Below, piece after piece: positions 2,557 to 33,400 of a stretch of 64,000 bases of DNA. The notes under the pieces were generated by a model. The model made no database searches. It was not told the DNA's origin and saw only the letters and a program-made list of their open reading frames with translations. A program made the translations under genes and the position numbers. This DNA comes from Candidatus Heimdallarchaeum aukensis (GTDB taxonomy: Archaea; Asgardarchaeota; Heimdallarchaeia; Heimdallarchaeales; Heimdallarchaeaceae): positions 2,496,001 through 2,560,000 of the forward strand of contig CP084166.1 of assembly GCA_021513695.1 (NCBI GenBank), read 5' to 3'. Numbering within the stretch: position 1 is the first letter of the stretch; the number at the start of each line of letters is the position of its first letter.

Positions 2557-2560
2557 GGAG
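2557..2560 (+). promoter_or_regulatory. Shine-Dalgarno-like GGAG 8 nt upstream of the GTG start at 2569
   Basis: 'aaaatGGAGctaaaaaaGTG'. The nearby ATG at 2555 is in another frame and terminates after 14 codons. Confidence 0.3.
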
Positions 2561-2568
2561 CTAAAAAA

Positions 2569-14610: not shown

Positions 14611-15372
14611 GGTAGTGTCTAGTTTTTATACCACCTCCTAGGCAAAAAGGAACTAAGGGGAGGATGTCCCAAGCTCTGATGAGGACGAACGAAATTATAA
14701 TAGAGCATAAAGAGTGTAAGGAAACCAGAAAGATGGGTAGAGCCATAGACGGCACGGATAGAACATGTGCAGTGGAGAATAGAATGAAACCAACGATAGC
14801 TCTTAAGGGTAGCATTAAAACGTTCAATATAGGAGCGTAAACCACCTTTGATAACGGAGATTTTAATACCGAGACGACGTAATACAGGATACCATACCCC
14901 TGCATCTGTAACGACAATACGAGGCTTAGAACCCCAACATTTGAACCAATAACGAAAAGTTAGTAAACATTCAAGATTACTCCGTCCTTTAGTAATACTA
15001 AAACCCAGTAAAGTCTTGTTGTAAGGATCTAACGCGAACCACATGTACATTGAGCCTTGAGAGGTCTTAATCTCTGTTTCATCAACTACTATAATCTCTG
15101 GTATTCCCCCTCTCTCTGCTACAACTCTATGTAAACTTTCCCTAAAGAGCCTGAATTTCTTTACCCAATACCATAGTGCCTGGTGTGTTAAACCATTCTT
15201 CCATGCTACTGTCCTCAAACCATTCTTTGAACCGATATATTCATAAATAGCTCTTATGATTATTTTCTTGGGGATTCTGCTCCCTTTAAAAAGGGAGTAT
15301 ATTCTTAGTTTGTTCATATTTTCACATTAGAATCCCCAATAATATTTTTGTCGGGAGAAACTAGACACCACC
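14611..15372 (-). mobile_element. IS6-like insertion sequence, copy B (762 bp), inverted relative to copy A, with its own flanking direct repeat
   Basis: IRs: GGTAGTGTCTAGTTTTT at 14611-14627, and ...AAACTAGACACCACC ending at 15372 (one mismatch). A 10-bp direct repeat ATAGAAAACC sits at 14601-14610 and 15373-15382. Confidence 0.85.
14619..15317 (-). CDS. DDE transposase (IS6-like), copy B
   Basis: 232 aa, collinear with the 6403-7101 product. Differences cluster in the first 13 aa, with scattered substitutions elsewhere. Confidence 0.85.
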   Translation of the reverse strand: MNKLRIYSLFKGSRIPKKIIIRAIYEYIGSKNGLRTVAWKNGLTHQALWYWVKKFRLFRESLHRVVAERGGIPEIIVVDETEIKTSQGSMYMWFALDPYNKTLLGFSITKGRSNLECLLTFRYWFKCWGSKPRIVVTDAGVWYPVLRRLGIKISVIKGGLRSYIERFNATLKSYRWFHSILHCTCSIRAVYGSTHLSGFLTLFMLYYNFVRPHQSLGHPPLSSFLPRRWYKN

Positions 15373-15423: not shown

Positions 15424-16245
15424 ATGAAAAAAGAGAAAGAGGACGCAATTAAAAAATTTGCGAATATTTTTTCAATGACAGCGGGAAATAGAAGTATATA
15501 TAAACACCTGGATTTTCTATTTAAAGATGATTATAATGGTTCAACAAAGAGAGATCAAATTATCTATTTATTAAAGAAATATTATCCTGATAATAAAAAA
15601 CTTATGTACATCTTAAGAGAGATTTTTGCAGTTCATAATGTTTCTTTTGTTAAACGTAATATTGATAAAATCAATGAATGCCTTATAAATTTTAATCTAT
15701 ATGTTGATGAAAATTTAAAACTTAATGTAATTGATTCTGTGATTATGTGTCTTAATGAGGCTGAATTCATAGTCAATTCTCAATTAGACAATATTCCGAA
15801 AAACTTACCCCAAATGCCAGAAGATATCCTGGAAAAAGGAAAAAATATGGCTTATGCATATTTACTTTTATATATCCTTGAAAATTATTTGAGGTTATTC
15901 ATAAGCCAAGCTAATAAGAATAAAAAATTAGAATACAGCGCTGGACAGAAAAAGAAAATAGAAAATAGAAAAAATCAAGAAGAAAAAAACACGTATCACG
16001 CTGTAAGAGGTACAAATGATCTCTTTTATCTTGATCTTAGTGATTTATGTTCTATAATTGTAAATAATTGGAATAGTTTTATTAAATATTTTCCAAATCA
16101 AAATTTCATCAAAACTAGGCTTGAGGAATTAGTAATAACACGGAATCACGTTGCTCATAATAGTATCATTTCTGACAATGATTTCAGGAGATTAATAACA
16201 TATTTTGAAGATATCCTTAATCAAATAGCCTTTTACTTTCATTAA
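15424..16245 (+). CDS. HEPN-domain protein (Swt1-like R-N-x-x-A-H motif) with unknown N-terminal region
   Basis: 'LEELVITRNHVAHNSIISDNDFRRL' near the C-terminus matches the Rx4H HEPN signature. Confidence 0.5.
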   Translation: MKKEKEDAIKKFANIFSMTAGNRSIYKHLDFLFKDDYNGSTKRDQIIYLLKKYYPDNKKLMYILREIFAVHNVSFVKRNIDKINECLINFNLYVDENLKLNVIDSVIMCLNEAEFIVNSQLDNIPKNLPQMPEDILEKGKNMAYAYLLLYILENYLRLFISQANKNKKLEYSAGQKKKIENRKNQEEKNTYHAVRGTNDLFYLDLSDLCSIIVNNWNSFIKYFPNQNFIKTRLEELVITRNHVAHNSIISDNDFRRLITYFEDILNQIAFYFH

Positions 16246-16317: not shown

Positions 16318-17919
16318 TTATTTCTCAAGTTCTTCTTTTATAGATGGAGTTACCCCCCCATGTTTCATTCTACGTTTCTTAATATTAACTAAAAGTGTAA
16401 AAGGAACAGATAATCCTGTAACCATAGCTTCACCAGTAGCTAGCCCTTTAATTGCTTCGAAATCTTCTTTTGTCATATGTTCTGCAATGTTTTGTACATA
16501 ATTTTGGTCTTTTGGATTCATCATTCTTAGTATAAAATGGGTGTTACATTGGCTTAAAATGTCTGCATCAACTTTAGAAGGTCTTTGTGATACAATACAC
16601 AATCCCATACCAAATTTTCTTCCTTCAGAAGCAACTCTTGCAATTATCTGTTTAGAAGCAGAAGGGCTTGTTCCTGGAGGAATGAAATTATGTGCTTCTT
16701 CAATAATTGTTAAAAATGGCTTTATTTTTGATTCATAACTTGTTTTCCTCAAATCAAAGAGTTTTCTTAGAATTAATCCTACTAAAGCTTGTTGATCAAA
16801 AGCTTCAATTCCTCCTAAGTCTAATATTGATATTTGCCCTTTCTTTACAAATTCTGAAACATCAGTTCCTTTTCCAAAAGTAAAATATGGTCTTTTCAAT
16901 AGTGCTCTCATTTTATTTTCAAGTGCTCTTCTTGTTCCTTTGTGTTCTATTCTTTCTATTGACTTTTCTATTAATTCCTCAATGCTGGTTGGAGGATTTC
17001 CATCAAGTGCTTCCATATGTATTTCATCCCAACCTCGATCTAATGATGCACTCTGAGCCTCTGAAATACCATAGTACTGTGAAAGTAAAGTCTTGATTTG
17101 CCATGTCTCTAACTCTGCTGGATGAAACTTAACACTAATTGTTACTCTTTTTCTTCCATGAACATCTTCAAACTTCTTTTCAAGTAAATAATTAAATTCT
17201 CCAGGAACAAATGTTAGTACTGACTTTGAGATTTCACGTGCTTCTCTTGAATCTTCATTAGGAATAAGTGTTGAAGAATATTCGCTATGAGGATCAATAA
17301 GAATGATGGGTAGTTTGAGATTATCTATTAAATATAATTCTTCGAGAATAACACCAACAGTATAACTTTTTCCTGCTCCTGTCATTGCTAAAACTGAAAA
17401 ATGATGTGTTACAAGTTTTTCATAATCTATATATGCTGGAACATTATGATTATCTCTCAAATTACCAATAATAATTGTTCTATCCTTAATGAAAAAAGAA
17501 GAAACAAATTCATCATCGGCCATATAAATAATTGTACCAGGATTAAGAGGGATTCGAGGTCTGACAAAGGCATTTCCTATTTTTCTTCCAATTATTAAAA
17601 CTGAAAATCCCATCATTCCAGCAATTTCAGAAGCTAATCCTAAATGTTCAATAGTCATAGAACTTGCCTCTAAGTCTTTTGTTCTAAGTTTTGGCATCAT
17701 ATTTTCATCTAATAGTAATCTGTTTTTTGTCCAAACAGATATAACTCTCCCTAGTAAAAATTCTTGTTTTTTATTTTCATCTAGATATTGTATTTTTACT
17801 AGTCTACCAATACCAATACTTGGCGAGTCTTTCAGAGCAATTGCTTCTACCAAGTATGGTGTTGTTTTTCCATAAACTATTCCAACAGGTATGTTTTTTT
17901 TCTCTCTATTTTGTTCCAT
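16318..17919 (-). CDS. herA: HerA-type (DUF87/FtsK-HerA superfamily) ATPase
   Basis: Walker A 'LAMTGAGKSYT', Walker B 'LTIIEEAHNFIP', 'GMGLCIVSQRPSKVD'. The N-terminal barrel-like region is 'PVGIVYGKTTPYLVEAIA'. Lies 9 nt downstream of the nurA-like gene. Confidence 0.85.
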   Translation of the reverse strand: MEQNREKKNIPVGIVYGKTTPYLVEAIALKDSPSIGIGRLVKIQYLDENKKQEFLLGRVISVWTKNRLLLDENMMPKLRTKDLEASSMTIEHLGLASEIAGMMGFSVLIIGRKIGNAFVRPRIPLNPGTIIYMADDEFVSSFFIKDRTIIIGNLRDNHNVPAYIDYEKLVTHHFSVLAMTGAGKSYTVGVILEELYLIDNLKLPIILIDPHSEYSSTLIPNEDSREAREISKSVLTFVPGEFNYLLEKKFEDVHGRKRVTISVKFHPAELETWQIKTLLSQYYGISEAQSASLDRGWDEIHMEALDGNPPTSIEELIEKSIERIEHKGTRRALENKMRALLKRPYFTFGKGTDVSEFVKKGQISILDLGGIEAFDQQALVGLILRKLFDLRKTSYESKIKPFLTIIEEAHNFIPPGTSPSASKQIIARVASEGRKFGMGLCIVSQRPSKVDADILSQCNTHFILRMMNPKDQNYVQNIAEHMTKEDFEAIKGLATGEAMVTGLSVPFTLLVNIKKRRMKHGGVTPSIKEELEK

Positions 17920-17928
17920 TTTCCTTCC

Positions 17929-19053
17929 TCAATGTAGTAATTTTCTCATTTTTGAATTAATCAAATCTCTGGCAATATCTGGTGCAATATCTCGTATCTC
18001 ATAAATTAGTTGGGTAAAGACTTTGGATGAAAATGATTTTGTTACTCTTGTAAGTTCGTCTACAAAAACTAAAGGATAAGGATATCCAACAACAGGTGAA
18101 ATCCGACATAAGTCATTAAATAATTCAAATAGTGAGTCCAATTTGGATAAATCCCATTTTGGAAATTCTAGATATAGTGCATGAGATGAATTAGGATACA
18201 AATAATAGGTACTACAAACACCTTCTCTTTTTAAGATTGAAATTGGGATTTCACCATGGGTGATACCAGCGACTGAAACATCTAAAGGTTCAAAATAAGC
18301 TGGTTTATCAGGCGAATATTTTCGTATTATATGTTGTAAAGCTATTCTTTCTCTCCAAGATTCATTTTCAATTAAATTTCGAAGAATTTCTAACTTTTCT
18401 TTATTAATATTTAATTTATCCATTACTTCCTTATCACACTTTAAAGCTCTTAGATATTTAGCTCTTCTCGCATCTTTTGATACTGCAATTACACTCACTT
18501 TACTCTTTTTTAAAGCTAAATTAAAAAAATCATTAGCATTTTTTTGATACTTTAGGAAAGCATCTGACAATTCTCTTATGTTAGTAACATTTACAGAAGT
18601 ATCAGGAAATGTGATAGCTCCATCAAGTAAAACAAGAGTTGGAATATCATCATCTATTTCATTAATTGCTTTTTTTGCAACATAATATTCTAAAGACTTC
18701 ATGAAAGTGGATGAAACTATTGAAGCTATATCTGAAGCTGGAGTATCAAAAAGTTGAATATCATTAAAATCAGTAATTTTTGCCTTTCCAAGTGTAATCA
18801 TAAAGGCTCGAGCAGAAGCAACAGCAAATCCCACTCCTTCTAAAGATGTATGATCCATCCCCCCATCAACGGCTATAACTCTCCAATTTTCATCTGAAAA
18901 TGATTTATATTTTGGAATATTTATGATAAGATCTTTTAAAATTTTGAAGTTATTGGCCTGTCTTCTAACTTTTGCAACAAGTTTTGGTACTTCTATTCTT
19001 CTATATCTATCAATTTCTTTCATAATAAGATTGAAATTATCCATTATCTTCAC
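17929..19053 (-). CDS. nurA: NurA-like nuclease
   Basis: 'WRVIAVDGGMDHT', 'LVLLDGAITFPD', 'VIAVSKDARR' and 'VGYPYPLVFVDELTRV' match conserved NurA blocks. Adjacency to herA supports the call. Confidence 0.72.
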   Translation of the reverse strand: MKIMDNFNLIMKEIDRYRRIEVPKLVAKVRRQANNFKILKDLIINIPKYKSFSDENWRVIAVDGGMDHTSLEGVGFAVASARAFMITLGKAKITDFNDIQLFDTPASDIASIVSSTFMKSLEYYVAKKAINEIDDDIPTLVLLDGAITFPDTSVNVTNIRELSDAFLKYQKNANDFFNLALKKSKVSVIAVSKDARRAKYLRALKCDKEVMDKLNINKEKLEILRNLIENESWRERIALQHIIRKYSPDKPAYFEPLDVSVAGITHGEIPISILKREGVCSTYYLYPNSSHALYLEFPKWDLSKLDSLFELFNDLCRISPVVGYPYPLVFVDELTRVTKSFSSKVFTQLIYEIRDIAPDIARDLINSKMRKLLH

Positions 19054-19783
19054 ATTCTTTTAGCTTGTTATCTAATTCTGGCCATTTCAGCCTTAGTTGA
19101 TGTAATCTGTCATTAAAATCTGTAGCACATCCAATTTTTTCGTCTTTAATCTCTAAAATGCCTTTTTCAATAAAAATTTCCATCCATTCTGATATTTCAT
19201 CAATCTCAGCTAATCTGTAAAAATCGCTTAGGGATATTGATTCTCCGAAACTCATCAAAAAGGTTAATGAACGTTGAATTCCATCCCATACTCTTTTAGA
19301 GAATTTTGGAAATGCAGCTTCAGATACTGTGATATTTTTGAATATCTCTTTAAATATGTTTTTTATCAGTTCTGTTTCAAGTTTTCTGTGATACTCTGTA
19401 AAGTATGGCAAACAATAGATAAAGTTGTCTCGAATGATAGCAATAATGTGTTTTTGGAATTTAATTGTTTTGTCTTTAGCTTCTATTCCAACGTTTCCAA
19501 CTTTCAAGATTTCTCTCTGATTTTCAAATTTGATTGAATCTAAAGTAACCTCACAACTTTTTATCGTTTTACAAAAATGTTCAATATCTATTTTAGAAAG
19601 AGCGATTATTATTCCTATGCGGTTACTAGTTATTTCTTTTTTATAGTCTTCAATTAATGAGTAAGTAATTAAGATACAATTTGATTGTTTAATATCATCT
19701 GTTCTTGAAAATTCAGTGTCTTCTAAAATAAATTTTAGAGGATTATATATTTGAGGAGGAATGAACATCTTCATACTTAACAC
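19037..19783 (-). CDS. hypothetical protein (248 aa), operon member
   Basis: Its 3' end overlaps the nurA-like start by 17 nt. Its start abuts the stop of the 1224-aa gene. No motif recognised. Confidence 0.5.
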   Translation of the reverse strand: MLSMKMFIPPQIYNPLKFILEDTEFSRTDDIKQSNCILITYSLIEDYKKEITSNRIGIIIALSKIDIEHFCKTIKSCEVTLDSIKFENQREILKVGNVGIEAKDKTIKFQKHIIAIIRDNFIYCLPYFTEYHRKLETELIKNIFKEIFKNITVSEAAFPKFSKRVWDGIQRSLTFLMSFGESISLSDFYRLAEIDEISEWMEIFIEKGILEIKDEKIGCATDFNDRLHQLRLKWPELDNKLKECEDNG

Positions 19784-22700
19784 CTATGTAGAAATTGTTT
19801 TAATAATTAGTTTTCTATTAATTAGATCTTCTATACAATTATCTACTTTATTTTTACCAAACTTTTCGTACAATTTTTCTAACTCTATTGCTCTCTTTGG
19901 TCCCTCTTTTCCTATCTCAAAGGCTATATCTTTATATTTAGTGAAATGTTCTTCTAAAAATTTATCTGTTACTTGTTTAAGATTGTACAAATCGTCAATA
20001 ACATTAAAAGATATTTCACGTTTTGAATCAACTTTATTAAGTAAACTAGGGATTTCATTAATACTTTTTACATCTTGATTTGATAGGATTAGATCTATAT
20101 TTCGTTCCTTTATCCAATTAAAAAAATTTGAAATTTGATTTAGAATTTTTTGTACATTGCGAAGCAGTATAGTTTGAATATCCTTATAAAAAGTTTCAAT
20201 TTCAGCACAAATTCGTGCAAACCAATCTAAGTATTTGTTAGCAAAAAACGGATCCTCTGGTAGTTCTGCTTTTAAGACATCATTTTCTAATTCTCTAAAC
20301 TCTCTCTCACCAATTTTATCTATGATTGATGAAATTTCAGTACTATTCTCAAAAACATAATCCCATTTTTTAATATCAACCAATTTTAGATTTTTTAAAG
20401 TGCTTAAGTATTTGTTAATAATTTCTGTTTGTTTTTCTAGTTTGGAATACAATGAAGATATTTGACTTTTAGCTTCAATGTGCTTGTTAAGTTCCTTCTT
20501 TATATTCTCAATTTTTACAATAGCTTTGTTTATTTCATTAATTTTCTTTATTGAATTTAATACACTAATGATTTTTTGAACAATATTATTAATTTTCGGA
20601 TCTGATTTTTTACTATGTTTATTACATTCTGCACTTATCTGTTTTAACAAAATTCTTAAGCTTTCTAGCTCACTTGTCACTTTTGAATAATCTTCTTCAT
20701 ATGCTTCAACTACTTCTGAAAAATCCCTCAATTTTTCATGTAATTTGCTTCTTTCATTGTAAATTTCAACTAATAATTCTCCTGTAATGTCAATAAAGTT
20801 TTTAGGTACTATTTCTTCAATATCTTTAGCATTTTTCTCAATTTCAGAAAGTTCATTTTCTAAATTCTTCAACTCTTGTAAAGTTTCAATTTCTAAATTG
20901 ATTGTGTGAGTATTTTCAGAAAAATCGACTCTAATAGTTTCTAACTCTGTAAACTTCTCAACTAAATTTAAATATTGTTTGGTTACCTCGTTAAGGTAAG
21001 TTCTATCCAATTTAGGATTGTAAAAATCAAATTTAAATTTCTTTTTTGCCTTTGGTGCTTGATCTATTAGAATACCTTTTACTGTTAGGAGTCTGAGGAT
21101 CTCTATTTCTTCTAAAATTGAACATGAAAGAGCATATCGTCTTCTTAATCTTATTCTTGCCAATTCAGGATCAATAGAATGAGCAAAAACAGAAAACAGT
21201 TCTATTATATCACGTTCTATTAAACTTAATTTTTGTACTTTATTGAACTTGAAAAGGCTACCAAAGCGTTCAAGTTTAGTTTTTAATTCGTTTATTTTTT
21301 GGTTGTTGGGTTCTTCTGAAACAATTTCTTCCCATAATTCATAATAAGTATCTAGTAGATCGTTAAAATCTCTTTTTTGGAAAATTCTATTGTCAAGAGG
21401 TATTCTATCCATTTTGTCAAATTCAGTTCTTATTTCCTTTTGAGTGTTGGTAAGCCAAGTAATGAAATTGTTTTTTATATCATCATGATTTTTCTCTTGA
21501 TGTGTTTCTTTTGGATATAAAATGTGAATTAGATCTTTTTTAGGAATTCCATACACTTTAATTAAAGGACTGTCTCTAGGTTTTAAATCCACTATTCCAG
21601 TTAATTCTTGTGATAGTTTTTCATGTTTGATTATTTCGTCTGTTTCTTCAGGCACCAAAAATGTAATTGCTTCAAAAAGTTCTGAACTTTTTACACATAA
21701 CTTTAGGTAGGTTTTAAGAATATCTTTTATATCCTTCTCTATTGATGGCTTAGCAAGCATGATTGCATTTTTTGGAGAGTCAATTGCACATACCAAATCG
21801 TTAATATTCTTATCTTTAGTTCCTAAAACGGAAATATAATGCATTTTTAGTATTTCTTTTAGATTTTTTGAGAATTTAACTGATATTTTTCTAGAAGATT
21901 CATTATCAAATTGCTGTAATGCTTTTCTCTCACCACTTATTTCTATACCTCTTATCTGTTTTTCTTTAATTTCATTTTTCCATCTTTGTTCAGAAATAAG
22001 TATATATGATTTTGCTTTGTTTTCAAACAATTCTCTTAATTCTTCATTTAACGTTTTCAGATTTTTTTTCTTAACTGCAATATAAGTGTTATATTCGCTA
22101 ACTGGAACTGTAGTAGGATCGTAATTATTCTTTACTAAATCATTATCAATATATGTTGCATACTTTTTAATAAGTCTGATATTTCTGTATTGACTGTCTT
22201 TTTCGCTGTATTCGATGTCTTTAACTATTTCTTCGTAATTTTCTATATTATCTTCATAATTAATAATTAATAAATCATCAACAAGACCTGAATCGATTAA
22301 CCGGTTTTTAAAGAATTCTACCAAATTTTGATCGATGTAATTTTTAAGTTCAGCATCAGAAATTGCAGAGTGGTCAAAATAAATTCGAAAAAGTAATTTG
22401 TAGATTGTTTCTTCATTAATGTTTATTTCTTTTGCAAACTTTCTTGCTACCTCAATTAACGAGGAATTAATCTTTCTTAACGCATTTTCAAAATTCTCAT
22501 TATTTAATCCTAAGATTTCAGGTTTTTTTATTATCTCTTCAAAATGTTCTAAGGTGAATTGAATTATTATTTCTTCTTTTCTTTCTAAGGTTTTTTTTGC
22601 TAAATACACCACTAGTCTATCCATCAATTTTATTAACATTCTTGTATTAACATAGGTATATTCATGTACTAAGGCAGAAAGCTTAGCTAAAGCTAAAGCA

Positions 22701-23458
22701 GTTCCTTCACTAAATGGATAATAAGGGTTTTTTAAATTAATTAAATTCCTTAAATCTTGATTTGCGTAAAAGTAAATGTAGCGACGAACTAATCCAGCCA
22801 TCTTCCAATCTTCAGGCTCTGGAATTATTATTTTGAATCCAATTAATCTATTATCACTTATATCCGGGTGGTAACTTAAGACATAATTCCAAGATGGAAC
22901 ACCAAAACCTAAAACTAGCATAATATTTTTGAAATCACTAAACCTATCATTTCTTTCTAAAAATCTCCTAAAATCTTTAAAGAATCGATCCGCATCGTTT
23001 CTTGATATCTGATTATTTGAAATCATTCTAGGAATATCATCTATTTCATCGATAAAAATAATAACTCGTTTTGAGGTATTTTCATCTTTTAAATTTCTAG
23101 ATAATTGTTTTTTTAAAAAAGAGTATAAATTTAGTGTGTCTCTACTAAATTGAGTGAAAATTGATATTATACCTATACTTTTAGTATATCTAGCAAGATA
23201 TTTCATAAGTTCAGATTTTCCTGAACCATATTCACCAATTACTGCTAAAGCAATATTGTCCCTATAATTAGTTGATTCTTCTAGTTTTCCGATAGCTCGT
23301 ATTAAAGCATTTCTTACCCCTACTGGAGGTGGAACATCTTCGTCCAATCCTTTAGTAACCCCCATTGGATTAAAAGGATTACTTGTAAAACCAACCTTTT
23401 TGAATAAATTCATTTCGTTACTCATATTTAAAATCCTCCTTAATTTCAGTAATCCCAT
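19784..23458 (-). CDS. large P-loop NTPase (N-terminal AAA/ORC-like core) with ~900-aa Lys/Glu/Ile-rich helical, probably coiled-coil, extension
   Basis: Walker A 'GEYGSGKS' (aa 75-82) and Walker B 'VIIFIDEIDD' (aa ~131-140) lie close together at the N-terminus. The rest is low-complexity helical sequence. The true start is possibly Met12 or Met16. Confidence 0.65.
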   Translation of the reverse strand: MGLLKLRRILNMSNEMNLFKKVGFTSNPFNPMGVTKGLDEDVPPPVGVRNALIRAIGKLEESTNYRDNIALAVIGEYGSGKSELMKYLARYTKSIGIISIFTQFSRDTLNLYSFLKKQLSRNLKDENTSKRVIIFIDEIDDIPRMISNNQISRNDADRFFKDFRRFLERNDRFSDFKNIMLVLGFGVPSWNYVLSYHPDISDNRLIGFKIIIPEPEDWKMAGLVRRYIYFYANQDLRNLINLKNPYYPFSEGTALALAKLSALVHEYTYVNTRMLIKLMDRLVVYLAKKTLERKEEIIIQFTLEHFEEIIKKPEILGLNNENFENALRKINSSLIEVARKFAKEININEETIYKLLFRIYFDHSAISDAELKNYIDQNLVEFFKNRLIDSGLVDDLLIINYEDNIENYEEIVKDIEYSEKDSQYRNIRLIKKYATYIDNDLVKNNYDPTTVPVSEYNTYIAVKKKNLKTLNEELRELFENKAKSYILISEQRWKNEIKEKQIRGIEISGERKALQQFDNESSRKISVKFSKNLKEILKMHYISVLGTKDKNINDLVCAIDSPKNAIMLAKPSIEKDIKDILKTYLKLCVKSSELFEAITFLVPEETDEIIKHEKLSQELTGIVDLKPRDSPLIKVYGIPKKDLIHILYPKETHQEKNHDDIKNNFITWLTNTQKEIRTEFDKMDRIPLDNRIFQKRDFNDLLDTYYELWEEIVSEEPNNQKINELKTKLERFGSLFKFNKVQKLSLIERDIIELFSVFAHSIDPELARIRLRRRYALSCSILEEIEILRLLTVKGILIDQAPKAKKKFKFDFYNPKLDRTYLNEVTKQYLNLVEKFTELETIRVDFSENTHTINLEIETLQELKNLENELSEIEKNAKDIEEIVPKNFIDITGELLVEIYNERSKLHEKLRDFSEVVEAYEEDYSKVTSELESLRILLKQISAECNKHSKKSDPKINNIVQKIISVLNSIKKINEINKAIVKIENIKKELNKHIEAKSQISSLYSKLEKQTEIINKYLSTLKNLKLVDIKKWDYVFENSTEISSIIDKIGEREFRELENDVLKAELPEDPFFANKYLDWFARICAEIETFYKDIQTILLRNVQKILNQISNFFNWIKERNIDLILSNQDVKSINEIPSLLNKVDSKREISFNVIDDLYNLKQVTDKFLEEHFTKYKDIAFEIGKEGPKRAIELEKLYEKFGKNKVDNCIEDLINRKLIIKTIST

Positions 23459-24176
23459 AAGTGCCAGGTATGATGTTCTCGACTCCTACACCAAATTTAA
23501 ATTGAATCTGAAGATCATCTTTCAGTGTTTTTAATAGATTAAAAGCAGTTTCTAACGTCATTACTTTATTTGATTCTAGCACCTTCTGGGTAAAGCACTC
23601 TATGATGTCATATGTTCTCAATTGCTTTATTTTGGCTTCTTTTGAGATAATTCCTATACATTTTTTAAACAAACTAACATATGTTCTTGTTGTCATCTTG
23701 CTTTCATAATAAATTCCTTCTGATTCCTTTTTTAGTAATGAGCTCATTATTGCTAATGCTGTTAAAGTGTTAAATGTAGGTTCAGGAAGATTCCAACCAT
23801 AACTGAACTGTTTCTCCTTGATTAAATTAAAAAGGGATTTTTTACTTTCAAAAAATTTATCACTACTTTCATCTAAAAAATCAGTTAAAACTCTATATTG
23901 AGGTATCTGACTCATTAAAATGTTATGAAGCAAATCTGAAAACTTATCTTTTTCATTACGAAATTCAAACAATTTTTGACCATTTTGTGTGAATTTTAGA
24001 TATTTATTTTTCTCTTCTTCAATAATTCCAAGCTGTTTCATGAGTCTTCTAACATCATTACCTGATGTATCAAATTGTTTAAACTGTTCTACTGGAATTT
24101 TCCCTTTATATAGACCTATGGCTGTTAAACACCTCATAAATGAACCTTCAGTAACTTGAGGTAATGATTTAATCAT
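23418..24176 (-). CDS. hypothetical protein (252 aa), first gene of the HerA/NurA-containing operon
   Basis: Long ORF overlapping the next gene. No motif recognised. Confidence 0.5.
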   Translation of the reverse strand: MIKSLPQVTEGSFMRCLTAIGLYKGKIPVEQFKQFDTSGNDVRRLMKQLGIIEEEKNKYLKFTQNGQKLFEFRNEKDKFSDLLHNILMSQIPQYRVLTDFLDESSDKFFESKKSLFNLIKEKQFSYGWNLPEPTFNTLTALAIMSSLLKKESEGIYYESKMTTRTYVSLFKKCIGIISKEAKIKQLRTYDIIECFTQKVLESNKVMTLETAFNLLKTLKDDLQIQFKFGVGVENIIPGTYGITEIKEDFKYE

Positions 24177-24259
24177 CGAGTGTTTATTTAATTTTTATTA
24201 TATTTATTTTATGGAAAAAGTATGTTTTTTTTAAAAAAATATTATCTCTTTTAAGAAAA

Positions 24260-25267
24260 AAGCATGTCCAAAAATTCTTTTTCACCAACTATACAGTCCG
24301 AAGGAGTAAACGGTAGTTATAACAGAGGAGAGAACTGTACAAGGTAGAAAGGATGGTAGAGGGTAAGCGATCAAGTATCGGGGGAAGAGAGAGTTTGAGG
24401 AGACCAAAGACATGTTCAATACTACTACGATACTCGGGGTGGTGATTATGACGATAGAGACCAGGGTAGAGACGATGAGCTTGAACTATTGGTCCAAGAG
24501 GAGGAGGAGAGGGATAACGAGCATTACTTTTTGGGGGAATAACAGGAAAAAAGGAATGTTGGCTAAGAAGACCGACGATATTTTCTGTCCAGTAGGCACA
24601 GTCTCCATAGAATCGCAAGAAAGGTCTCAAGAGTGCAGAAGGAAGTTTCTGCCATAACAAACCGAAGACTTTACTATCGTGAGTGTTACTAGCAGAATGA
24701 GTAAGAGAGACTATAGCTCGAGAGGGTAAACCAACTATAAGGTGTATCTTCCAGAAAAGTTTAGTTTGGAGGTTTTCTTTAGTCCTCCTCTTGCCCACTT
24801 GAGAAAACGCCAAACAGAAGCTTGACGGATTTTAAACCCTGAACTATCCACCGCCATAGCTTTCAACCCTTTTTTCCTCACTATTTTCCTACCTAAATCT
24901 ATTATCCACCGCTCCAGCAACTCACTTTCTGTCGCTCTCCACACTGCATGAAAAGTAGATTTGGAAGGAATCTTCTTCATCCACCCCTCTTCTATCAAAA
25001 AAGCGCATAAAGACAACTTTTCCTCTAACTTCCTCCAAGCAATTCCTTCTATTCTAGCAATGATCGCTAAAGCCAGTATCACCCATCTTTCTGCTATTCT
25101 CTTTCTCCCTCTCTTGCTTTCTCTCGGTTCCTCTTTCACCAGTTTCTTAAGGAAAGGTTCATTAATGATTATGAATTCTCTTGCTTTGTGGGGGTCTATG
25201 ATCTGAAAGAAATTCATACTTCCGACATAAACCCCCACATTAATAAAAATTAATTTTTGGACATGCT
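24260..25267 (-). mobile_element. IS5/IS4-superfamily insertion sequence (~1.0 kb), visibly GC-richer than its flanks
   Basis: Perfect 16-bp IRs: AGCATGTCCAAAAATT (24261-24276) and AATTTTTGGACATGCT (25252-25267). Direct repeat TTAAGAAAA at 24251-24259 and 25268-25276. Confidence 0.8.
24289..25238 (-). CDS. DDE transposase split into two overlapping ORFs (24735-25238 and 24289-24813); the frameshift is either programmed or inactivating
   Basis: 'AMAVDSSGFK' (D) is in the first ORF. 'WKIHLIVG...THDSK', 'FYGDCAYWT' (D) and 'YRSSIEHVFGLLK' (E, K at +7) are in the second. The overlap contains 'CTAAAGAAAAC'. Confidence 0.7.
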
Positions 25268-25282
25268 TTAAGAAAATTTAAA

Positions 25283-26515
25283 TTAGTTTATTTTGTTTAT
25301 ATCTTCATTTTCTAAATAGTAATCTTGAATTATGTCAGAAAGATTGTAATTTTTAAAATATCCATTATTTAACTCTATTATGAATGGAATATATTTTCTT
25401 AATGGAGAGGTCTTTAAATACGTTTTTAACTGTTCTAACTTATCGCTAGTAAAGGGTAACATATTTTTTATTCGTTCAAATTCGTTTAAATAAACGTAAG
25501 CATTATGTAAAGCTCTTAAGTTAAAGCTTTTATCTAAATTCTCTCTTGTATGAGGATTCACTCCGCATTCGCATTTTAAAAATTCTTCTTCATGTTCTTC
25601 TTCGAGAACTTTTCTTGATTTATTTTTTCTAGGAAATAGAAATCTATCTGACAGTCCTGGTAATTGTATCGCGCCATGAGCAGCTTTTAATCTCCATCCA
25701 ACAGAATCAACAGAATCAGCTCCCGCTCCATAAATGAGATTCATTGTTGTAGTTCCTCCAATGCCAAATACATGAAGTTTACTTTTAGGAAACAATTTTT
25801 TGACTAATGCCGTTGCAGCAAAAACGAACATTGGGGCATTTAACCTTTTATCTTTTGAATGTGTTGGAATATTCTTTGAACCTTTGCTATATTTTAATAA
25901 TGGAACCATTGAACCTAATCCTATCCACTTTGGATACGAATTAGTATAATCTTTGTAAATCTCTAGGATTTTTTTAGAATAATTAATAATTTTTCTAAAT
26001 GAATGACCGTGAACGACAGGTATTAACGTTGTATCCAGATTTGCTTGTAACATCTTTTCTAAATTATCTAGTGTTTTTTTTTGCCTGTAATAGTTTTTGG
26101 AATATGTGGCTGTAGGATCTAAAGGATGATCTAAAACTACTGCATAATCCGGTGATGCCTTATTATACAATTTTATTAGATCTTCAACTTTAATTGAGAT
26201 ACCTTGTTTTTTTTGAAAAATAAAACCTCCACTATCCATCATAACATTAGAATTAATTTCTAAAAAATTTTTTAATCCTTTTTTCTCAATTTTTTCTCTA
26301 ATTTTTGGCTTGAAAATAATTTCTGCTCCATTTACTAAAATTCCTACATTTTTTGAAGTAAACTTGGCTATACTTTTGACTTTAGGTTGTGGATTTATAG
26401 GTGTTCCAAACCAAAAAAAAAGGTCATTTTTACCAGAGTTATTATCGAATATGTCACTTACTATCTGTTGCTCAGTTTTTTCATCATCAGAAGAAATTTT
26501 ACATGTAGTAATCAT
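25283..26515 (-). CDS. tRNA-guanine transglycosylase (TGT)-fold protein, DpdA/TgtA5-like candidate
   Basis: 'MMDSGGFIFQ' corresponds to the TGT DSGGFQ motif. 'LHVFGIGGTTTMNLIYGAGADSVDSVGWRLKAAHGAI' corresponds to the GxGxP...GxDxFD...A..G block carrying the second catalytic Asp. 'CECGVNPH' is only a partial Zn motif. No PUA-like C-terminus was seen. Confidence 0.65.
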   Translation of the reverse strand: MITTCKISSDDEKTEQQIVSDIFDNNSGKNDLFFWFGTPINPQPKVKSIAKFTSKNVGILVNGAEIIFKPKIREKIEKKGLKNFLEINSNVMMDSGGFIFQKKQGISIKVEDLIKLYNKASPDYAVVLDHPLDPTATYSKNYYRQKKTLDNLEKMLQANLDTTLIPVVHGHSFRKIINYSKKILEIYKDYTNSYPKWIGLGSMVPLLKYSKGSKNIPTHSKDKRLNAPMFVFAATALVKKLFPKSKLHVFGIGGTTTMNLIYGAGADSVDSVGWRLKAAHGAIQLPGLSDRFLFPRKNKSRKVLEEEHEEEFLKCECGVNPHTRENLDKSFNLRALHNAYVYLNEFERIKNMLPFTSDKLEQLKTYLKTSPLRKYIPFIIELNNGYFKNYNLSDIIQDYYLENEDINKIN

Positions 26516-27122: not shown

Positions 27123-29267
27123 ATGGTTCAACCGAAGAAGCTTTATAGTTTTTTAGATTCAGAATTAAAAACTTATCAGTTTCCAGAATTTCAAAGACCA
27201 TATGTATGGGGCCAAAATGAGATATATGATTTAATTGATACAGTAGTAAGGGGATATTCTGTTGGATTGATACTACTTTGGGAAGGAGATAGTAATGCTC
27301 TGAATTATTCTCTTCGAGATTGGGTATCTCCTCCAAGCAATAGTGATCGTTTAAGACTAAAGTACATTCTAGATGGACAACAAAGAATAAAAACACTTTC
27401 AAGAACCTTCGGAATTGATTTTTTAGTCAATAATGGTTTTATGTCAGAAGTAAAAACTGATTCAATTCCAAGAGCACTCTCCAAATACCCATATTTTATT
27501 TTTCCATCTCGATCAAATTTCTTAAATGTTACAAAAAACAAAAAAAATCGCTGGGTTAGTTTCGATATTTTCTTAGATTTAGCTAAAGTTGACTTAAGTA
27601 AAGAAAAATGGTATGAACGCATATCTCCTGATTGCTGGGTTTCTTTATTGGATATTATGAGGATGAATTGGAAGAAGGAAGAAATAGCAGAATTTAGCAT
27701 ATTAACTGAGAAAAAAGGTCCACTTAATAATTTAGAATTTTTTATTGTTGAGTATAAAAATGGTAAAATTGAAAGAGATAACCCAAACAACAAGTGGTAC
27801 AAAAAACAAGAGGATGGTGTTCAAGATACAAACTTAGTAAAACCAATTAGATTCATTTACATTAACTCATTAGAAAATATAGAAGATATAATTAAATATT
27901 TTAGATTATATTACCAGTTAAACGGAAGTATTCAAATTTCTCAAGATAAAAATTTTCTACATTTAGAACTTAGGCGAGAATTGATTTCACTACTAAAAAT
28001 AAAGCCAACAGATATAGATTTATTATTTCAAGAAACAGAATCAGCAGAACTTACACAGTTAACGCATTACTTTTCTAGGTTAAATAGAGCTGGTGTGTTA
28101 CTGGATGTAGTTGATTTGCTTATAGCAAAAATTTATGGTGAGAGAAATGAGCCGTTTCCTTTGCGCAATATCTTACAGAACACCTTTAGCGATGATACTC
28201 TTCGAAATTTTTTTAATCTAAAAGATGATGATGACCCAAGTACAAAATTTAAACTATTATTACAAGTAGTTTCTCTTTACTTTTATAACAAACTATCTGA
28301 TGATGCAATATTAAAAATAACGCAGCAAAATTTGTTAGATTTTGAGTTTGAGAAATTCTCGATGACATCTATTCCAATAAATAAGAAAGTATTAATACGT
28401 GAATCATGGAGAAAAACAATAGAATTTTTGAGAGAGAAACTTGCTATAAATTCTATTTCTAAATTAAGGTATGACCGGTTGTTTGTTATATTAATGGCAC
28501 TTAATTATCATGTTTATAAAGAAGAAATACTAAACAAAAGCTATAGAGACTTATTTGAGAATGAGTTTGATGAGATTCTCAAAGTTTGGATACTAAGGGA
28601 ATCTATATCGTTCAATCTAGCAACTGGAAGTAATAAACCTCCTGAAAGATATAAAACATTTATAAATAAGAGTATACCTTCTATAATACGATGCATTGAA
28701 AATGAAGAAGAAATAAGTAGAAAAGAAATATTAGATGAAATATTCGTTCCCACTTTGTCAGATGAAAACTTATCAGATAAGGAGTTTGGAAAAGCTCTAA
28801 TGAGTATTTTGTTGAAAGAAAATGGGATTTACGATTTCTACGATAAAACATTGTCAAAAAAGATCACAACTTGTTCTCAAGTTATTGAAGATACAATAGA
28901 GCTACATCATATTTTTCCAAAAAATATGGTTAATGATGCCAATTTAAAGAGGGTATTTGATATAGGATTAAACTTGACACCTTTAAAGAAAAAGACTAAT
29001 AGTGATAAACTTGGTAATAAACACCCATTTAAATATATTCAAGAAATGATGGGGGAGATTCAAGATGAAGCTATATTCAACGAAATAATGAACTCTCATT
29101 GGTTGCCAGAATTAGAATGGTGGCGTGATATTATGCAAAAATACGATTATCCAGATAATGAAGATGCAATAAAAAATGTTGAGAAAATAAAAGAGCAATT
29201 TGATTTATTTATTGAAAAAAGAAAAGAAATTGTTTTAGATAAAATCAAACCCCTCTTATACTTATAG
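27123..29267 (+). CDS. GmrSD-family type IV (modification-dependent) restriction enzyme: N-terminal DUF262, C-terminal DUF1524
   Basis: 'YQFPEFQRPYVWGQNEIYDLIDTVVRGYSVG' and 'DGQQRIKTL' indicate DUF262. C-terminal 'IELHHIFPKN...GLNLTPLKKKTNSDKLGNK' indicates the DUF1524 His-Me finger. Confidence 0.8.
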   Translation: MVQPKKLYSFLDSELKTYQFPEFQRPYVWGQNEIYDLIDTVVRGYSVGLILLWEGDSNALNYSLRDWVSPPSNSDRLRLKYILDGQQRIKTLSRTFGIDFLVNNGFMSEVKTDSIPRALSKYPYFIFPSRSNFLNVTKNKKNRWVSFDIFLDLAKVDLSKEKWYERISPDCWVSLLDIMRMNWKKEEIAEFSILTEKKGPLNNLEFFIVEYKNGKIERDNPNNKWYKKQEDGVQDTNLVKPIRFIYINSLENIEDIIKYFRLYYQLNGSIQISQDKNFLHLELRRELISLLKIKPTDIDLLFQETESAELTQLTHYFSRLNRAGVLLDVVDLLIAKIYGERNEPFPLRNILQNTFSDDTLRNFFNLKDDDDPSTKFKLLLQVVSLYFYNKLSDDAILKITQQNLLDFEFEKFSMTSIPINKKVLIRESWRKTIEFLREKLAINSISKLRYDRLFVILMALNYHVYKEEILNKSYRDLFENEFDEILKVWILRESISFNLATGSNKPPERYKTFINKSIPSIIRCIENEEEISRKEILDEIFVPTLSDENLSDKEFGKALMSILLKENGIYDFYDKTLSKKITTCSQVIEDTIELHHIFPKNMVNDANLKRVFDIGLNLTPLKKKTNSDKLGNKHPFKYIQEMMGEIQDEAIFNEIMNSHWLPELEWWRDIMQKYDYPDNEDAIKNVEKIKEQFDLFIEKRKEIVLDKIKPLLYL

Positions 29268-30499: not shown

Positions 30500-33400
30500 T
30501 CATTCTTCACAAGGCCCACCTACTATTTTTGAGTATGGGCAAGTTCTACATCTACTATACTCATCATCCTTATTTGGGTTTTTCACAAAGCCTTGTTCCA
30601 CATCAATTTTTATTCTGTTTTTAATAGCATCTTCAACTTGAGATTTGAAAGATTCAAGGTTATGATTTATTTTTACAACTTTGAATTGGGGATGTACAAA
30701 AACAATCAATGTTCCAATATCTTTGATATTTGGATAATTTTGTTTTAAAAGCCAAGCATATGTTGTTAGTTGATTCTCATACATTGTGTAGAGATCGCTG
30801 CTTTCATTTGGTGGATTTCCAGTTTTATAGTCAATGATTATCCATTTTTCTTCTTCAATTTTAAATAAAAGATCTATAGTTCCTGTTATTATAACGGGTT
30901 TATAATCATCGTAGGAAAATTTTGCTTGTAACTGATATTCTGTGAAAAAATCGGATGTTCTCTTATTGAAAAGATTTGAAATTGTTTTGTCTTTTAGATA
31001 AGAATTTATTATTTGTATAAGATGTTGTTTCGCATTATCAACTTGAATTTTACTAAGAATATTTAAAATAAGTTCAGAATCTATTTTTTCTTCTGAATTT
31101 ATTGCTTTATGAAATGATTCCATGAACAAATGGACTATATCTCCCCATTCTGCTGCTGAATTGATCCCCTTTGGAGGTGTTGTTCCTGGGGGTAAATGTT
31201 CCTCTCCAAATTTGCCAGATAAATAATAATTATCCACTTTATTTAAAACTGCATAGGCATATCTTCGGGGACAGAAAAGTAGATTGTAAAGTTCTTTTGC
31301 TGCAATAGATATGGGTACAAATTGTATATTTGCTAGTGTATTTAGTTTTTTAATTTTACTTCTTTTAACTTCTTTCTCATAATCTTTTTCTCTAAAAGAT
31401 AGAGGTTGATCTTCTTTAGGTGATGGCTTAATGATCTCTATTTTAATCTCTTCAACAATTTCTTTTTCTTCTAAACTATCGATAACTAGATTCTGTTCAT
31501 TCCAATTTAATGTTACATAAAAACAATCTCCTTCTGGGTTAAAATCTCTATTATTTAAAACTCCAAGTTTGTTTTGAATAGTATACATCCACCTAGTATA
31601 TTTATTTCCCTTAGGTTCTATAAGACCAAGATGAAAAATAAGATGATCTCTTGCTCTTGTAGTCGCAACATAAAAAAGGCGCCAAAATTCAGCAATATCT
31701 TTTTTGATAAATTGATTTAAAGGGTTGTTAAACTTAAAAACACCATTGTCTTCTCTTTTGTTACTAACCCAAAAGATTCCAGACGATAGATTACCAGGTA
31801 TTAATCTCTCTCCTGGGCCATTAATATCTTCTACTGTTTCTACATTAATATCAATTGGTTTAATAGCCACACCAATCTCTCTATCTAAAAATATTCTTTC
31901 CCTATAAGGGTCTCTTAATACATCTTTCACAAGCAGATCTGGAATAATTACTATTGGGAATTCAAGTCCTTTGCTTCTATGTATTGTCATTATTTTTACG
32001 CTATTTTTTGATTCGTAATCACCGATTTTTATGGTAGAATAATCTTGTTTTCCAGCATAAGCTCTATCTCGTAATACTTTTATTTTATAAACAAATTCAT
32101 TATACGAAAGTAGTTCTTCTTCTTCCCATTCTTTAATAATTTCAGTCAGTAATCTGAGATTTGCTAGAGTCTCAAAAGAACTTGAGGATGAAGAGAGAAA
32201 AACGATGTCTAATGCGCCATGATTAATTATTTTATCGATAAGGACTGCTTTTTCACCTTCTCTATCCCATCTTAGGTCATTTCTGAGTTTCAATAGCGCT
32301 TTTAATCTAATTAAATCTGTCTCCTTAATAATATTCTTTGAAGGTTGATTTTCTATTTCCATAAGTGCTTTTCTGAGCATAAAATTATGTGAAGCTAAAA
32401 ATCGAAGTGTTTCATCAGATATTGCAATTAAAGGAGAACGAAGTATATGTAATAATGCATATTTGTTGTGAGGGTTTGCAAACCAATCTAAAAAATCAAC
32501 AATTAAAGAAACTTCATGTTGTGCAAATAAAGAATTATCCAAAATCAGAGAATAGTTGATGCCGTATCTATCAAATAGCCTCAGAAAAGGATAGATCTTA
32601 CTTCTTCTTCTGAATAGTAAAGCAATATCTCCTGGCAAGGGAGATCTCTCTATTATTTCATCCTTTTCTTCTTCATAAATATTCAATCTGATTTTTTGGT
32701 CAAGAATATCCTTTATGCAAGAAACTATAGCTTCAGCATCTTTAGAATCCCAGTCAGCCCAATATATTGGCTTATTATTTGGTCCTTGGGTAAAAATGGT
32801 GTGGATGTTAGCAGTTTCTTTTTTATTTTTAGCGGTATTCCTTTTTGGAATTAACGGTACATAATCTACTTTTATTTTTCCAATTCTACCTGTAACATTA
32901 GAATCAAAAATCTCGCTGAATAGTGAATTAATGAGATAGATAATATCTGGTTGACTTCTAAAATTAGAAACCAATGCAACATATTCAGGATTCTTTATTT
33001 CAAAGGGCAAATCAATTTCATTTTTTGTTTTTGCATATTCTATAATTGAAGAGAATATTCCTGGCTCTGCTGATCTCCATTGATAAATTGACTGTTTAAC
33101 ATCTCCTATAATCATAATATTATTCTTTGTTCTAATTGTATCTTCATTTCGAATTAAATGTGAAATGATACGACACTGTACATAACTTGTATCTTGGAAC
33201 TCATCAATTAAAATATGATCAAACTTTAAGTTTAGACTTTTAACCCATGGACTTGTAGGATTTTTTTCTAAATATTCCCACAACATATATGCGATATCAA
33301 TATAGGTCAAATGTCCTGTTTTTTTAGTTTTTTCTGTATAAAGTTCGTCATATTTTTCTAGTAATAAGGTAAATTTATCGTATCTATCGCGCATCTCATA

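Follow-up and report, generated by a model that had tools for sequence, protein, structure and literature searches.

What does a HerA-NurA pair do in an archaeon when its genes stand apart from mre11 and rad50, in the company of largely unfamiliar proteins? The question is raised by a stretch of 64,000 nt from Candidatus Heimdallarchaeum aukensis (contig CP084166.1, positions 2,496,001 to 2,560,000; GC content ∼29%), hereafter called the window, in which herA and nurA share an operon with genes for a 252-amino-acid (aa) protein, a large AAA+ ATPase and a 245-aa protein. For two decades, HerA-NurA has been viewed as the machine for end resection in archaea. It is still under debate whether the archaeal pair acts in recombination or as an antiviral nuclease, and the operon offers a natural system for testing the idea of a defence function.

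An original prediction, made from the letters of the window, had described these five genes as an accessory, possibly immune HerA-NurA machine with novel partners. Our analysis supports the accessory, non-housekeeping and probably immune character of this machine, but a TGT-family transglycosylase had been missed and the novelty of the partners had been overstated. We regard the operon as accessory, and not as an end-resection operon, because no mre11 or rad50 gene lies nearby, the ATPase is not a Rad50, the surroundings are those of a defence island and the family is extremely rare. The six genes of the locus probably form a restriction-modification-type defence system, which is Dpd- and BREX-like and employs HerA-NurA as its nuclease. 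More tentatively, it could be the first system of its kind known from Asgard chromosomes, one that couples 7-deazaguanine restriction-modification to HerA-NurA as the restriction nuclease.

Organization of the operon

All coordinates of the locus are given as positions in the window. The six genes, and the insertion sequence (IS) that lies among them, are the following:

25283..26515, minus strand: TGT (DpdA-like), 410 aa; recognized by Pfam TGT, PADLOC DpdA and phrog_887
24259..25269, minus strand: IS element of ∼1 kb between the TGT gene and the gene for the 252-aa protein; recognized by its terminal inverted repeats
23418..24176, minus strand: 252-aa protein with a triple winged helix; AlphaFold2 model
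19784..23425, minus strand: AAA+ ATPase, 1213 aa (1224 aa from the first ATG at 23458); Walker motifs and Pfam AAA
19037..19774, minus strand: protein of 245-248 aa, alpha/beta with a C-terminal winged helix-turn-helix (wHTH) domain; AlphaFold2 model
17929..19044 (uncorrected end 19053), minus strand: NurA, divergent, 371 aa (374 aa uncorrected); Pfam PF09376
16318..17919, minus strand: HerA, 533 aa; Pfam DUF87, HerA_C and HAS-barrel

The five co-directional genes that had been predicted at 16318-24176 were all recovered as minus-strand open reading frames (ORFs), and their order (252-aa protein, 1224-aa protein, 248-aa protein, NurA-like protein, HerA) recurs in relatives. The close packing of the genes also held, whereas the exact overlaps and gaps required revision since the start codons shift. 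Alignments of orthologues, together with a gene call made independently on a Logan contig, give corrected products of 252, 1213, 245, 371 and 533 aa. After correction, the first and third junctions are overlaps of 8 nt (the third between the gene for the 245-aa protein and nurA), and the second and fourth are gaps of 9 nt (the fourth between nurA and herA). For the ATPase, a start at M12 is backed by orthologues, and a separate gene call predicts a product of exactly 1213 aa. The operon is tightly packed even after start-codon correction. Moreover, the arrangement is not a chance pattern of ORFs, because the identical gene order recurs in loci where the identity of the ATPase is only 24-44%.

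A transglycosylase gene as the sixth member of the unit

While the five genes are present as predicted, a sixth component had been overlooked. The gene for a DpdA-like TGT at 25283-26515 belongs to the unit, which therefore comprises six genes and not five. Complete loci from five independent lineages were compared, namely the window and the following related loci:

L001/L002: ATPase 44% identical to that of the window; TGT gene upstream
L003: ATPase 36% identical to that of the window; TGT gene after herA
L006: ATPase 24% identical to that of the window; TGT gene after herA
L011/L012: ATPase 24% identical to that of the window; TGT gene 1 nt after herA

Every complete related locus shows the order triple-wHTH protein, AAA+ ATPase, variable protein of 240-306 aa, NurA and HerA, with an orthologous TGT gene adjoining on the same strand. 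In a TGT profile search, the TGT genes of the related loci scored E-values from 1e-192 to 7e-78. In two lineages the TGT gene precedes the operon, and in the other three it follows herA directly. That five independent lineages keep the TGT linkage while the position of the TGT gene shifts is the signature of a functional link.

In the window, the IS between the TGT gene and the gene for the 252-aa protein is bounded by 24-nt terminal inverted repeats (24259-24282 and 25246-25269; 92% complementary) and is flanked by a TTCTT duplication. It contains two overlapping transposase-like ORFs with a weak match to DUF4096, and its GC content is locally higher. This IS at 24259-25269 interrupts the system and is no part of it. 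In L001, which carries no such insertion, the distance from the TGT stop codon to the start of the next gene is ∼120 nt. The same short spacer has been hit independently by two different ISs, the one in the window (24259-25269) and another with an rve-family transposase in L002 (L002:2220-3131); L001 is otherwise near-identical to L002, yet its spacer is uninterrupted.

Further members of the unit were considered and rejected. The 364-aa genes that lie beside the TGT gene in L003 and L006 are equal in length but unrelated, and they do not represent a shared seventh gene; the 364-aa protein of L006 (L006:13617-14711, plus strand) is encoded between the TGT and QueT genes and has weak PCNA_N/Hus1-like matches. 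Likewise, the HEPN gene at 15424-16245 was rejected as a component of the system, as it is not kept beside the operon in relatives. This plus-strand gene is convergent with herA and encodes a Swt1-like HEPN protein of 273 aa (Pfam E 9e-12; PADLOC candidate PDC-M34B E 2.5e-31). We also observed a second, divergent pair of HerA-like and NurA-like genes upstream of the operon in L006, on the opposite strand (L006:2-2394, minus strand).

The transglycosylase and its links to 7-deazaguanine

The TGT of the window matched Pfam TGT (E 3e-15), PADLOC DpdA (E 2.3e-8) and the viral TGT/DpdA family phrog_887 (E 5.7e-12). Its score of 72 bits against a cut-off of 350 on the NCBIfam arcTGT model indicates that it is not the tRNA enzyme, and 29 bits against a cut-off of 200 on the NCBIfam DpdA model likewise indicates that it is no equivalog of bacterial DpdA. 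When the family profile was compared with solved structures, the catalytic domain of ArcTGT (1iq8) was found first (E 9e-18, residues 49-327), followed by DpdA (7ui4, E 8.9e-5). With 410 aa compared to 582 aa for ArcTGT, the protein consists of the catalytic domain only and lacks the C-terminal tRNA-binding half.

The alignment of orthologues revealed D94, D129, H169, D270, C315, C317 and H337 as invariant residues. D94, D129 and D270 are the equivalents of the catalytic and base-binding Asp residues, and the CxC...H zinc motif is invariant as well. H169 is aligned to Gln169 of ArcTGT; DpdA contacts the base through a His, namely His181 together with Asp130 (PMC10164549). The features of DpdA were thus found in this protein, these being the TGT fold, the absence of tRNA-binding domains, Asp equivalents of D95, D130 and D256, and a base-contact His.

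Neighbouring genes in the related loci provide a second line of evidence. The operon of L006 continues with genes for the 7-deazaguanine precursor transporter QueT and for QueC, which synthesizes preQ0. The operon of L011/L012 continues with a gene for a stand-alone DUF5591 protein (E 6.9e-18), of which the sequence LPCAWGKPYSRSYIH is a perfect fit to the ArcS catalytic motif PC-x3-KPY-x2-S-x2-H. Stand-alone DUF5591 proteins are known as ArcS2, and DpdA2 of phage nt-1, acting with ArcS2, turns dPreQ0 in DNA into archaeosine (PMC10516641). Two other genes were noted at this locus: a 425-aa protein with a weak AAA_assoc_C match is encoded between the TGT and the ArcS2 core (L011:9448-10725), and a 133-aa nucleoside 2-deoxyribosyltransferase-like protein (Pfam E 5.9e-8) is encoded after the ArcS2 core (L011:11441-11842). 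These proteins may be further enzymes that handle the modified base. Because the TGT comprises the catalytic domain only, matches DpdA, keeps the invariant Asp and His residues and is linked to QueT/QueC and ArcS2 in relatives, we predict from its sequence that it is a DNA 7-deazaguanine (preQ0) insertase, which would constitute the modification module of the system.

HerA and NurA

The assignments of HerA and of a NurA-like protein in the original prediction were borne out. HerA matched Pfam DUF87 (E 6e-36) together with HerA_C and HAS-barrel, as well as PADLOC HerA (E 4e-56). Among solved structures, it is matched best by its counterpart in the HerA-NurA complex of Thermococcus kodakarensis (9x1l, E 2.4e-47), followed by HerA of Sulfolobus (4d2i, E 1.2e-37); both rank ahead of the defence-type HerA proteins. 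On the NCBIfam model helicase_HerA, the protein reached 207.7 bits against a cut-off of 970, and it is therefore not the housekeeping equivalog. Further matches were to CedD (86.6 bits) and to a viral phrog resembling terminases.

The match of NurA to Pfam PF09376 spans the whole domain (E 1.5e-11; 44.7 bits, cut-off 21); on NCBIfam NurA_Sulf, for which the cut-off is 400, the protein scored 23.2 bits. The acidic residues D63, E122, D144 and D332 are invariant and a GYPYPLV motif is conserved. In PDB searches by sequence, no solved NurA structure was found. Compared with the end-resection pair, a HerA with HAS-barrel and RecA-like ATPase domains and an adjoining NurA are present, while linkage to mre11/rad50 and equivalog-level scores are not. 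NurA of the window is a divergent protein and the predicted DNA-degrading effector, for which HerA would be the hexameric motor that feeds the DNA. In T. kodakarensis, HerA-NurA degrades both DNA strands biochemically, and an antiviral role was proposed by the authors of that 2026 study (PMC12977600).

The large AAA+ ATPase

The ATPase carries a Walker A motif (GEYGSGKS) and a Walker B motif (IIFIDE) at its N-terminus. Their spacing had been given as about 50 aa and was measured as 58 residues. R273 is invariant. The protein passed the threshold of Pfam AAA (21.7 bits, cut-off 21.2) and remained below that of BrxC_BrxD (PF10923; 16.9 bits, threshold 22.2), and no match to DUF6079 or DUF499 was detected at E <= 0.1. 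Distant relatives from Thermoproteaceae and Pyrobaculum, which are ∼950-1140 aa long and align to the family profile at the N- and C-terminus, do exceed the BrxC_BrxD cut-off of 22.2 bits (P0021, 33.3 bits; P0020, 27.2 bits), and both of these proteins have TrmB-like wHTH domains. In Pfam, PADLOC, NCBIfam and PHROGs, the ATPase was recognized only through weak matches of its P-loop region (residues 70-170), and its profile found only generic ClpX-type AAA P-loops in the PDB.

The original prediction had described some 900 aa of Lys/Glu-rich helix behind the Walker motifs. A helical or coiled-coil stretch does exist, but it is confined to residues ∼810-1060, where the protein is coiled-coil- or helical-bundle-like. 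Residues 1-800 contain many invariant positions, and in relatives wHTH signals appear around residues 340-385 and again at the C-terminal end. It had also been considered that the ATPase might turn out to be a divergent Rad50/SMC protein with an overlooked C-terminal ATPase half; such a half was looked for and not found. We reject Rad50/SMC as an identity for this protein, which has a single Walker A motif, a Walker B motif 58 residues further on, no LSGG motif, no CxxC zinc hook and no C-terminal ATPase half. In agreement with this, the Pfam matches were AAA and AAA_22, with a non-significant ABC_tran match at the P-loop (13.9 bits, E 0.085) and no SMC_N match. By sequence, the ATPase is an AAA+ protein related to Pfam BrxC_BrxD and is predicted to act as a BrxC-like scaffold and scanner.

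The 252-aa and 245-aa proteins

The gene for the 252-aa protein is conserved and opens the operon in all relatives. The protein had no sequence family match in Pfam, PADLOC, NCBIfam, PHROGs or the PDB. Its AlphaFold2 model consists of three winged-helix units (predicted local distance difference test score (pLDDT) 85, predicted template modelling score (pTM) 0.86). Foldseek returned weak matches to the FokI recognition domain, SspB, BpuJI, N.BspD6I and STK19, with TM-scores of 0.2-0.38; the longest structural matches were to BrxA, and the matches were weak overall. The model resembles BrxA, SspB and FokI in architecture, which is no proof of homology, and the protein is predicted to be a subunit for DNA recognition or scanning.

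For the 245-aa protein, the AlphaFold2 model (pLDDT 83, pTM 0.61) shows an N-terminal alpha/beta domain with an antiparallel beta-sheet insert and a C-terminal wHTH domain. A catalytic glutamine amidotransferase was considered and set aside as unlikely, as the family alignment contains no invariant Cys. The genes that occupy this place in L006 (306 aa) and L011 (285 aa) could not be aligned to that of the window. The 245-aa protein evolves fast and is predicted to be an adaptor or sensor beside the nuclease. BrxB has been described as fast-evolving (PMC12839542), and by its fast evolution and its position directly before the nuclease the 245-aa protein may be an analogue of BrxB. The partners of HerA-NurA are novel only in part: the protein predicted as 248 aa is without a family, the 252-aa protein has a BrxA/SspB/FokI-like architecture, and the ATPase is related to BrxC_BrxD.

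Genomic neighbourhood and distribution

The operon is embedded in a dense defence island. The window contains genes for CARF-like, PLD, DUF6602, NERD, HNH, HEPN, GmrSD, UvrD-PD(D/E)XK, helicase-methyltransferase, DUF3800, AAA_14/DUF4143 and HepT proteins as well as several ISs, which agrees with the island context invoked in the original prediction. Related loci also carry UvrD/PD(D/E)XK and HNH genes and a gene for a protein that joins RNase HII and SLFN/AlbA domains. In the window, where nearly all ORFs of >=120 aa were scanned, and in L001-L003, L006 and L011, no Mre11 (Metallophos-type) or Rad50/SMC protein was found, in line with the lack of Mre11/Rad50 noted in the original prediction.

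Relatives are extremely scarce. A profile of residues 1-800 of the ATPase retrieved 18 relatives with E < 1e-3, few of them full-length, from 1.84 billion representative proteins, and a scan of 185,579 species genomes with the ATPase turned up none. With 18 matches in 1.84 billion proteins, the arrangement is not universal in the lineage, a possibility that the original prediction had left open. The scan of the same 185,579 genomes for NurA yielded one related NurA on a 2-kb fragment, and a search of 2.9 million viral contigs yielded no relatives, only generic P-loop matches. Among the six proteins, PADLOC recognized only HerA and the DpdA-like protein, with no match for the three unfamiliar ones. 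So far, the system is found only in Heimdallarchaeia and a few unplaced metagenomic relatives.

A shorter arrangement occurs in Thermoproteaceae and Pyrobaculum (L008:1998-6999 and L018:8001-12116), where a distant relative of the ATPase (955-1141 aa, PF10923), a small protein (170-218 aa) and a NurA-like protein (248-305 aa) are encoded in this order. The NurA-like protein of L008 scored 23.4 bits on PF09376. No HerA, TGT or BrxA-like gene lies alongside this trio, the neighbours of which are the gene for ribosomal protein S7, a crenactin/arcadin cluster and the gene for the primase large subunit. The trio points to an older module of AAA+ ATPase, small protein and NurA.

Several other features of the island were recorded. 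At 990-3108 (plus strand), genes were found for a PLD-like nuclease (510 aa) and a small CARF/Csa3-like Rossmann protein (179 aa, sub-threshold). Two inverted IS copies of 750 bp (6360-7109 and 14611-15360; 93% identical), each with a 232-aa rve-type transposase, bracket a segment of 7.5 kb with genes for a ResIII/DEAD helicase (837 aa), a 273-aa ORF, a NERD protein (564 aa) and an HNH protein (397 aa). The layout of this segment resembles that of a composite transposon carrying a candidate defence cassette. A GmrSD-type enzyme is encoded by the next gene past the TGT gene (27123-29267, plus strand). Further on, a 1240-aa fusion of UvrD helicase and PD-(D/E)XK nuclease (30500-34222, minus strand) overlaps a 1151-aa ORF of no family (34212-37667, minus strand). 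In L001, separate UvrD and PD-(D/E)XK genes lie directly upstream of the TGT gene (L001:770-3947), so that UvrD/PD-(D/E)XK recurs near the system in two lineages. The region 38666-45574 (plus strand) encodes a ResIII/SWI2-SNF2 helicase (997 aa), ORFs of 276 aa and 174 aa and an N6_N4 DNA methyltransferase (853 aa), and is followed by genes for a DUF3800 protein and an AAA_14/DUF4143 ATPase; this cluster is reminiscent of restriction-modification modules of type III or of a DISARM-like kind. Finally, a HepT-like RNase of 143 aa (E 3e-23) is encoded at 55492-55923 (minus strand).

Comparison with known systems

The nearest published analogue of the six-gene system is BREX-Related Capture (BRC), a computational prediction covering 45 taxa that was described in Nucleic Acids Research in 2026 (PMC12839542). 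BRC comprises PglZ, a DUF6079 BrxC-like ATPase, a STAND NTPase that is a homologue of BrxB, a DUF4007 BrxA-like protein, HerA/FtsK, GNAT and TGT (PMC12839542). Both systems have a translocase of the HerA/FtsK superfamily, a TGT proposed to mark the host DNA with 7-deazaguanine and a large ORC/Cdc6-type AAA+ protein. They also share a DNA-binding protein of three wHTH units, which is a prediction in our case, and a small accessory protein that evolves fast. Furthermore, both are rare, archaeal and known from genes alone. They differ in the effector, which is PglZ in BRC and NurA here; no PglZ or alkaline-phosphatase-like match was detected in the window or the related loci, nor does the present system have an active STAND NTPase or a GNAT protein, and its ATPase gave no DUF6079 or DUF499 match at E <= 0.1. 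The top structural match of the BRC translocase is DndH-HerA/FtsK (PMC12839542), whereas the present system has an archaeal-type HerA with HAS-barrel. In addition, HerA/FtsK is universal in BRC and TGT occurs in a subset of its loci, while TGT is present in all five of the complete loci compared here. NurA is not mentioned in the accessible portions of the BRC paper and its supplements (PMC12839542).

With the Dpd system (dpdA-K), the operon shares a TGT paralogue without tRNA-binding domains, with preQ0 as the self-mark predicted here, and ATPase, helicase and nuclease neighbours in islands (PMC10164549). The source of the base would likewise be the precursor pathway of queuosine or archaeosine. 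However, there is no DpdB (ParB-like ATPase), no DpdC (DUF328) and none of the DpdD-K helicase/PLD genes, and the place of the restriction module is taken by HerA-NurA and the AAA+ ATPase. Except for DpdA, the operon proteins match no Dpd model of PADLOC. By sequence, the TGT is also more similar to the ArcTGT catalytic domain of archaea (E 9e-18) than to the DpdA of bacteria (E 8.9e-5).

Type 1 BREX (brxA-brxB-brxC-pglX-pglZ-brxL) resembles the operon in having a small protein, modelled here with several wHTH units, an AAA+ protein of ∼1200 aa, a small fast-evolving alpha/beta protein and a DNA-modifying enzyme, the last of these being a prediction in our case. This likeness consists of fold-level or sub-threshold sequence matches only. 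The operon differs from BREX by the absence of PglX, PglZ and BrxL, by a modifier that is a transglycosylase and by a gene order that is A-C-B-like instead of A-B-C; the only methyltransferase gene in the window (43013-45574) belongs to a separate cluster 17 kb from the operon. The system is therefore neither a strict Dpd system, since DpdB-K are absent, nor a BREX system, since PglX and PglZ are absent.

Two further comparisons concern the motor. In SIR2-HerA, DUF4297-HerA and the DndFGH-related HerA/FtsK capture systems, a HerA hexamer likewise serves as effector platform or motor within defence islands, and the capture systems repeatedly include wHTH proteins and ORC/Cdc6-type AAA+ proteins (PMC10853773). 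Here, the effector is NurA and not SIR2, DUF4297 or a nuclease with a restriction-endonuclease fold, and a TGT is added. Pfam and PADLOC searches gave no match to SIR2 or DUF4297, and it is NurA that adjoins HerA. Neither NurA nor TGT is mentioned in the paper on HerA/FtsK capture (PMC10853773). The archaeal HerA-NurA of Sulfolobus, Pyrococcus and T. kodakarensis is the same motor-nuclease pair, of which the NurA domain and the acidic residues are kept in the window. In contrast to those pairs, the present one has no mre11-rad50 linkage, a divergent NurA and sub-equivalog scores, and it is accompanied by TGT and sensor genes.

Proposed function and alternative explanations

How could the six proteins work together? 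In the scheme that we propose, the TGT would exchange guanine for preQ0 at defined sites in the host DNA. Archaea make preQ0 for archaeosine. In some relatives, the stand-alone ArcS2 would then mature the inserted base into archaeosine. The triple-wHTH protein and the AAA+ ATPase would bind DNA in the fashion proposed for BrxA and BrxC and read whether the sites carry the mark; the same pair may also offer the sites to the TGT, replacing the absent DpdB. The fast-evolving 245-aa protein would connect this sensor to the effector, and a HerA hexamer would thread unmarked foreign duplex DNA into a NurA dimer, by which both strands would be degraded. The catalytic motifs of the TGT, NurA, HerA and the AAA+ ATPase are intact.

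Several observations speak against this scheme. HerA-NurA needs DNA ends or nicks, and no activity that would make such entry sites was identified among the genes of the system. No preQ0 genes were found near the locus when the ORFs of the window were scanned, and searches of Pfam, PADLOC and NCBIfam revealed no homologue of DpdB or DpdC in the operon or its flanks; bacterial DpdA requires DpdB (PMC10164549). The 245-aa protein matched no family in Pfam, PADLOC, NCBIfam or PHROGs and no PDB profile. ISs part the TGT gene from the operon in both the window and L002, and the TGT and the operon could be uncoupling. Lastly, the trio of Thermoproteaceae and Pyrobaculum sits in housekeeping-like neighbourhoods, and the core module may be of non-defence origin.

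The problem of the entry site would be solved if the system were type IV-like, that is modification-dependent. The TGT-fold protein would then recognize or excise viral 7-deazaguanine, and the lesions would be the entry sites for HerA-NurA. TGT chemistry breaks the glycosidic bond via a covalent intermediate (PMC10164549) and could supply such a lesion. Moreover, DNA with 7-deazaguanine is reported to be common in viruses, archaeal ones included (PMC6884629, PMC10516641), the window locus is devoid of preQ0 and ArcS2 genes, and a type IV enzyme, GmrSD, is encoded by the next gene past the TGT gene. Nevertheless, the TGT of relatives is linked to QueT/QueC (L006) and to an intact ArcS2 core (L011/L012), which would be useless to a pure reader of the mark, and every catalytic and base-binding residue for a full base exchange is invariant. 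We consider a type IV-like system unlikely.

The housekeeping-like neighbourhoods of the trio bear on another explanation, in which the operon would provide the double-strand-break processing by HerA-NurA of this lineage, with the AAA+ and wHTH proteins replacing Mre11-Rad50 as recognizers of DNA ends. The closest relatives of HerA are indeed archaeal HerA enzymes of Mre11-Rad50 operons, and the AAA+/small protein/NurA-like trio adjoins genes for the primase large subunit, S7 and crenactin. A family as rare and patchy as this one, however, would have no conserved housekeeping function in Heimdallarchaeia. The constant linkage to a TGT, the IS-flanked defence islands and the scores of HerA and NurA, which lie far below the equivalog cut-offs (207.7 vs 970 and 23 vs 400 bits), also argue against a repair function, as does the fact that one partner evolves too fast to be aligned, which is typical of genes in host-virus conflict. 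Such a function is in our view quite improbable.

Least probable is that the operon is cargo of a mobile element, with HerA pumping DNA for transfer or packaging and the TGT shielding the DNA of the element from host restriction: HerA/FtsK ATPases do power DNA transfer and viral packaging, HerA matches CedD and a terminase-like phrog, the TGT matches the viral phrog_887, viral DpdA is reported to protect viral DNA (PMC6884629) and ISs flank the locus, but no capsid, portal, integrase, relaxase or replication genes lie beside the module in any locus scanned, the 2.9 million viral contigs hold no relative, and a HerA-coupled NurA destroys DNA, which is at odds with packaging.

Implications

The restriction-modification-type defence system that we favour places HerA-NurA under apparent epigenetic control of self and non-self, exerted by a TGT and BREX-like sensors. 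If this is true, the operon would be direct genomic evidence for HerA-NurA as an antiviral nuclease that is gated by self/non-self discrimination. It further suggests that the sensor cores of the BREX/Dpd type can swap their effectors, with PglZ, nucleases of the restriction-endonuclease fold and NurA appearing in the same role. The trio of Thermoproteaceae would, in that case, imply an older and wider partnership of NurA with AAA+ proteins that is independent of HerA or Mre11-Rad50. In practical terms, the TGT and its partners could give a new sequence-specific activity for DNA base exchange. The marking of DNA with 7-deazaguanine, known from bacteria and viruses, would also reach the chromosomes of Asgard archaea, the close archaeal relatives of eukaryotes.

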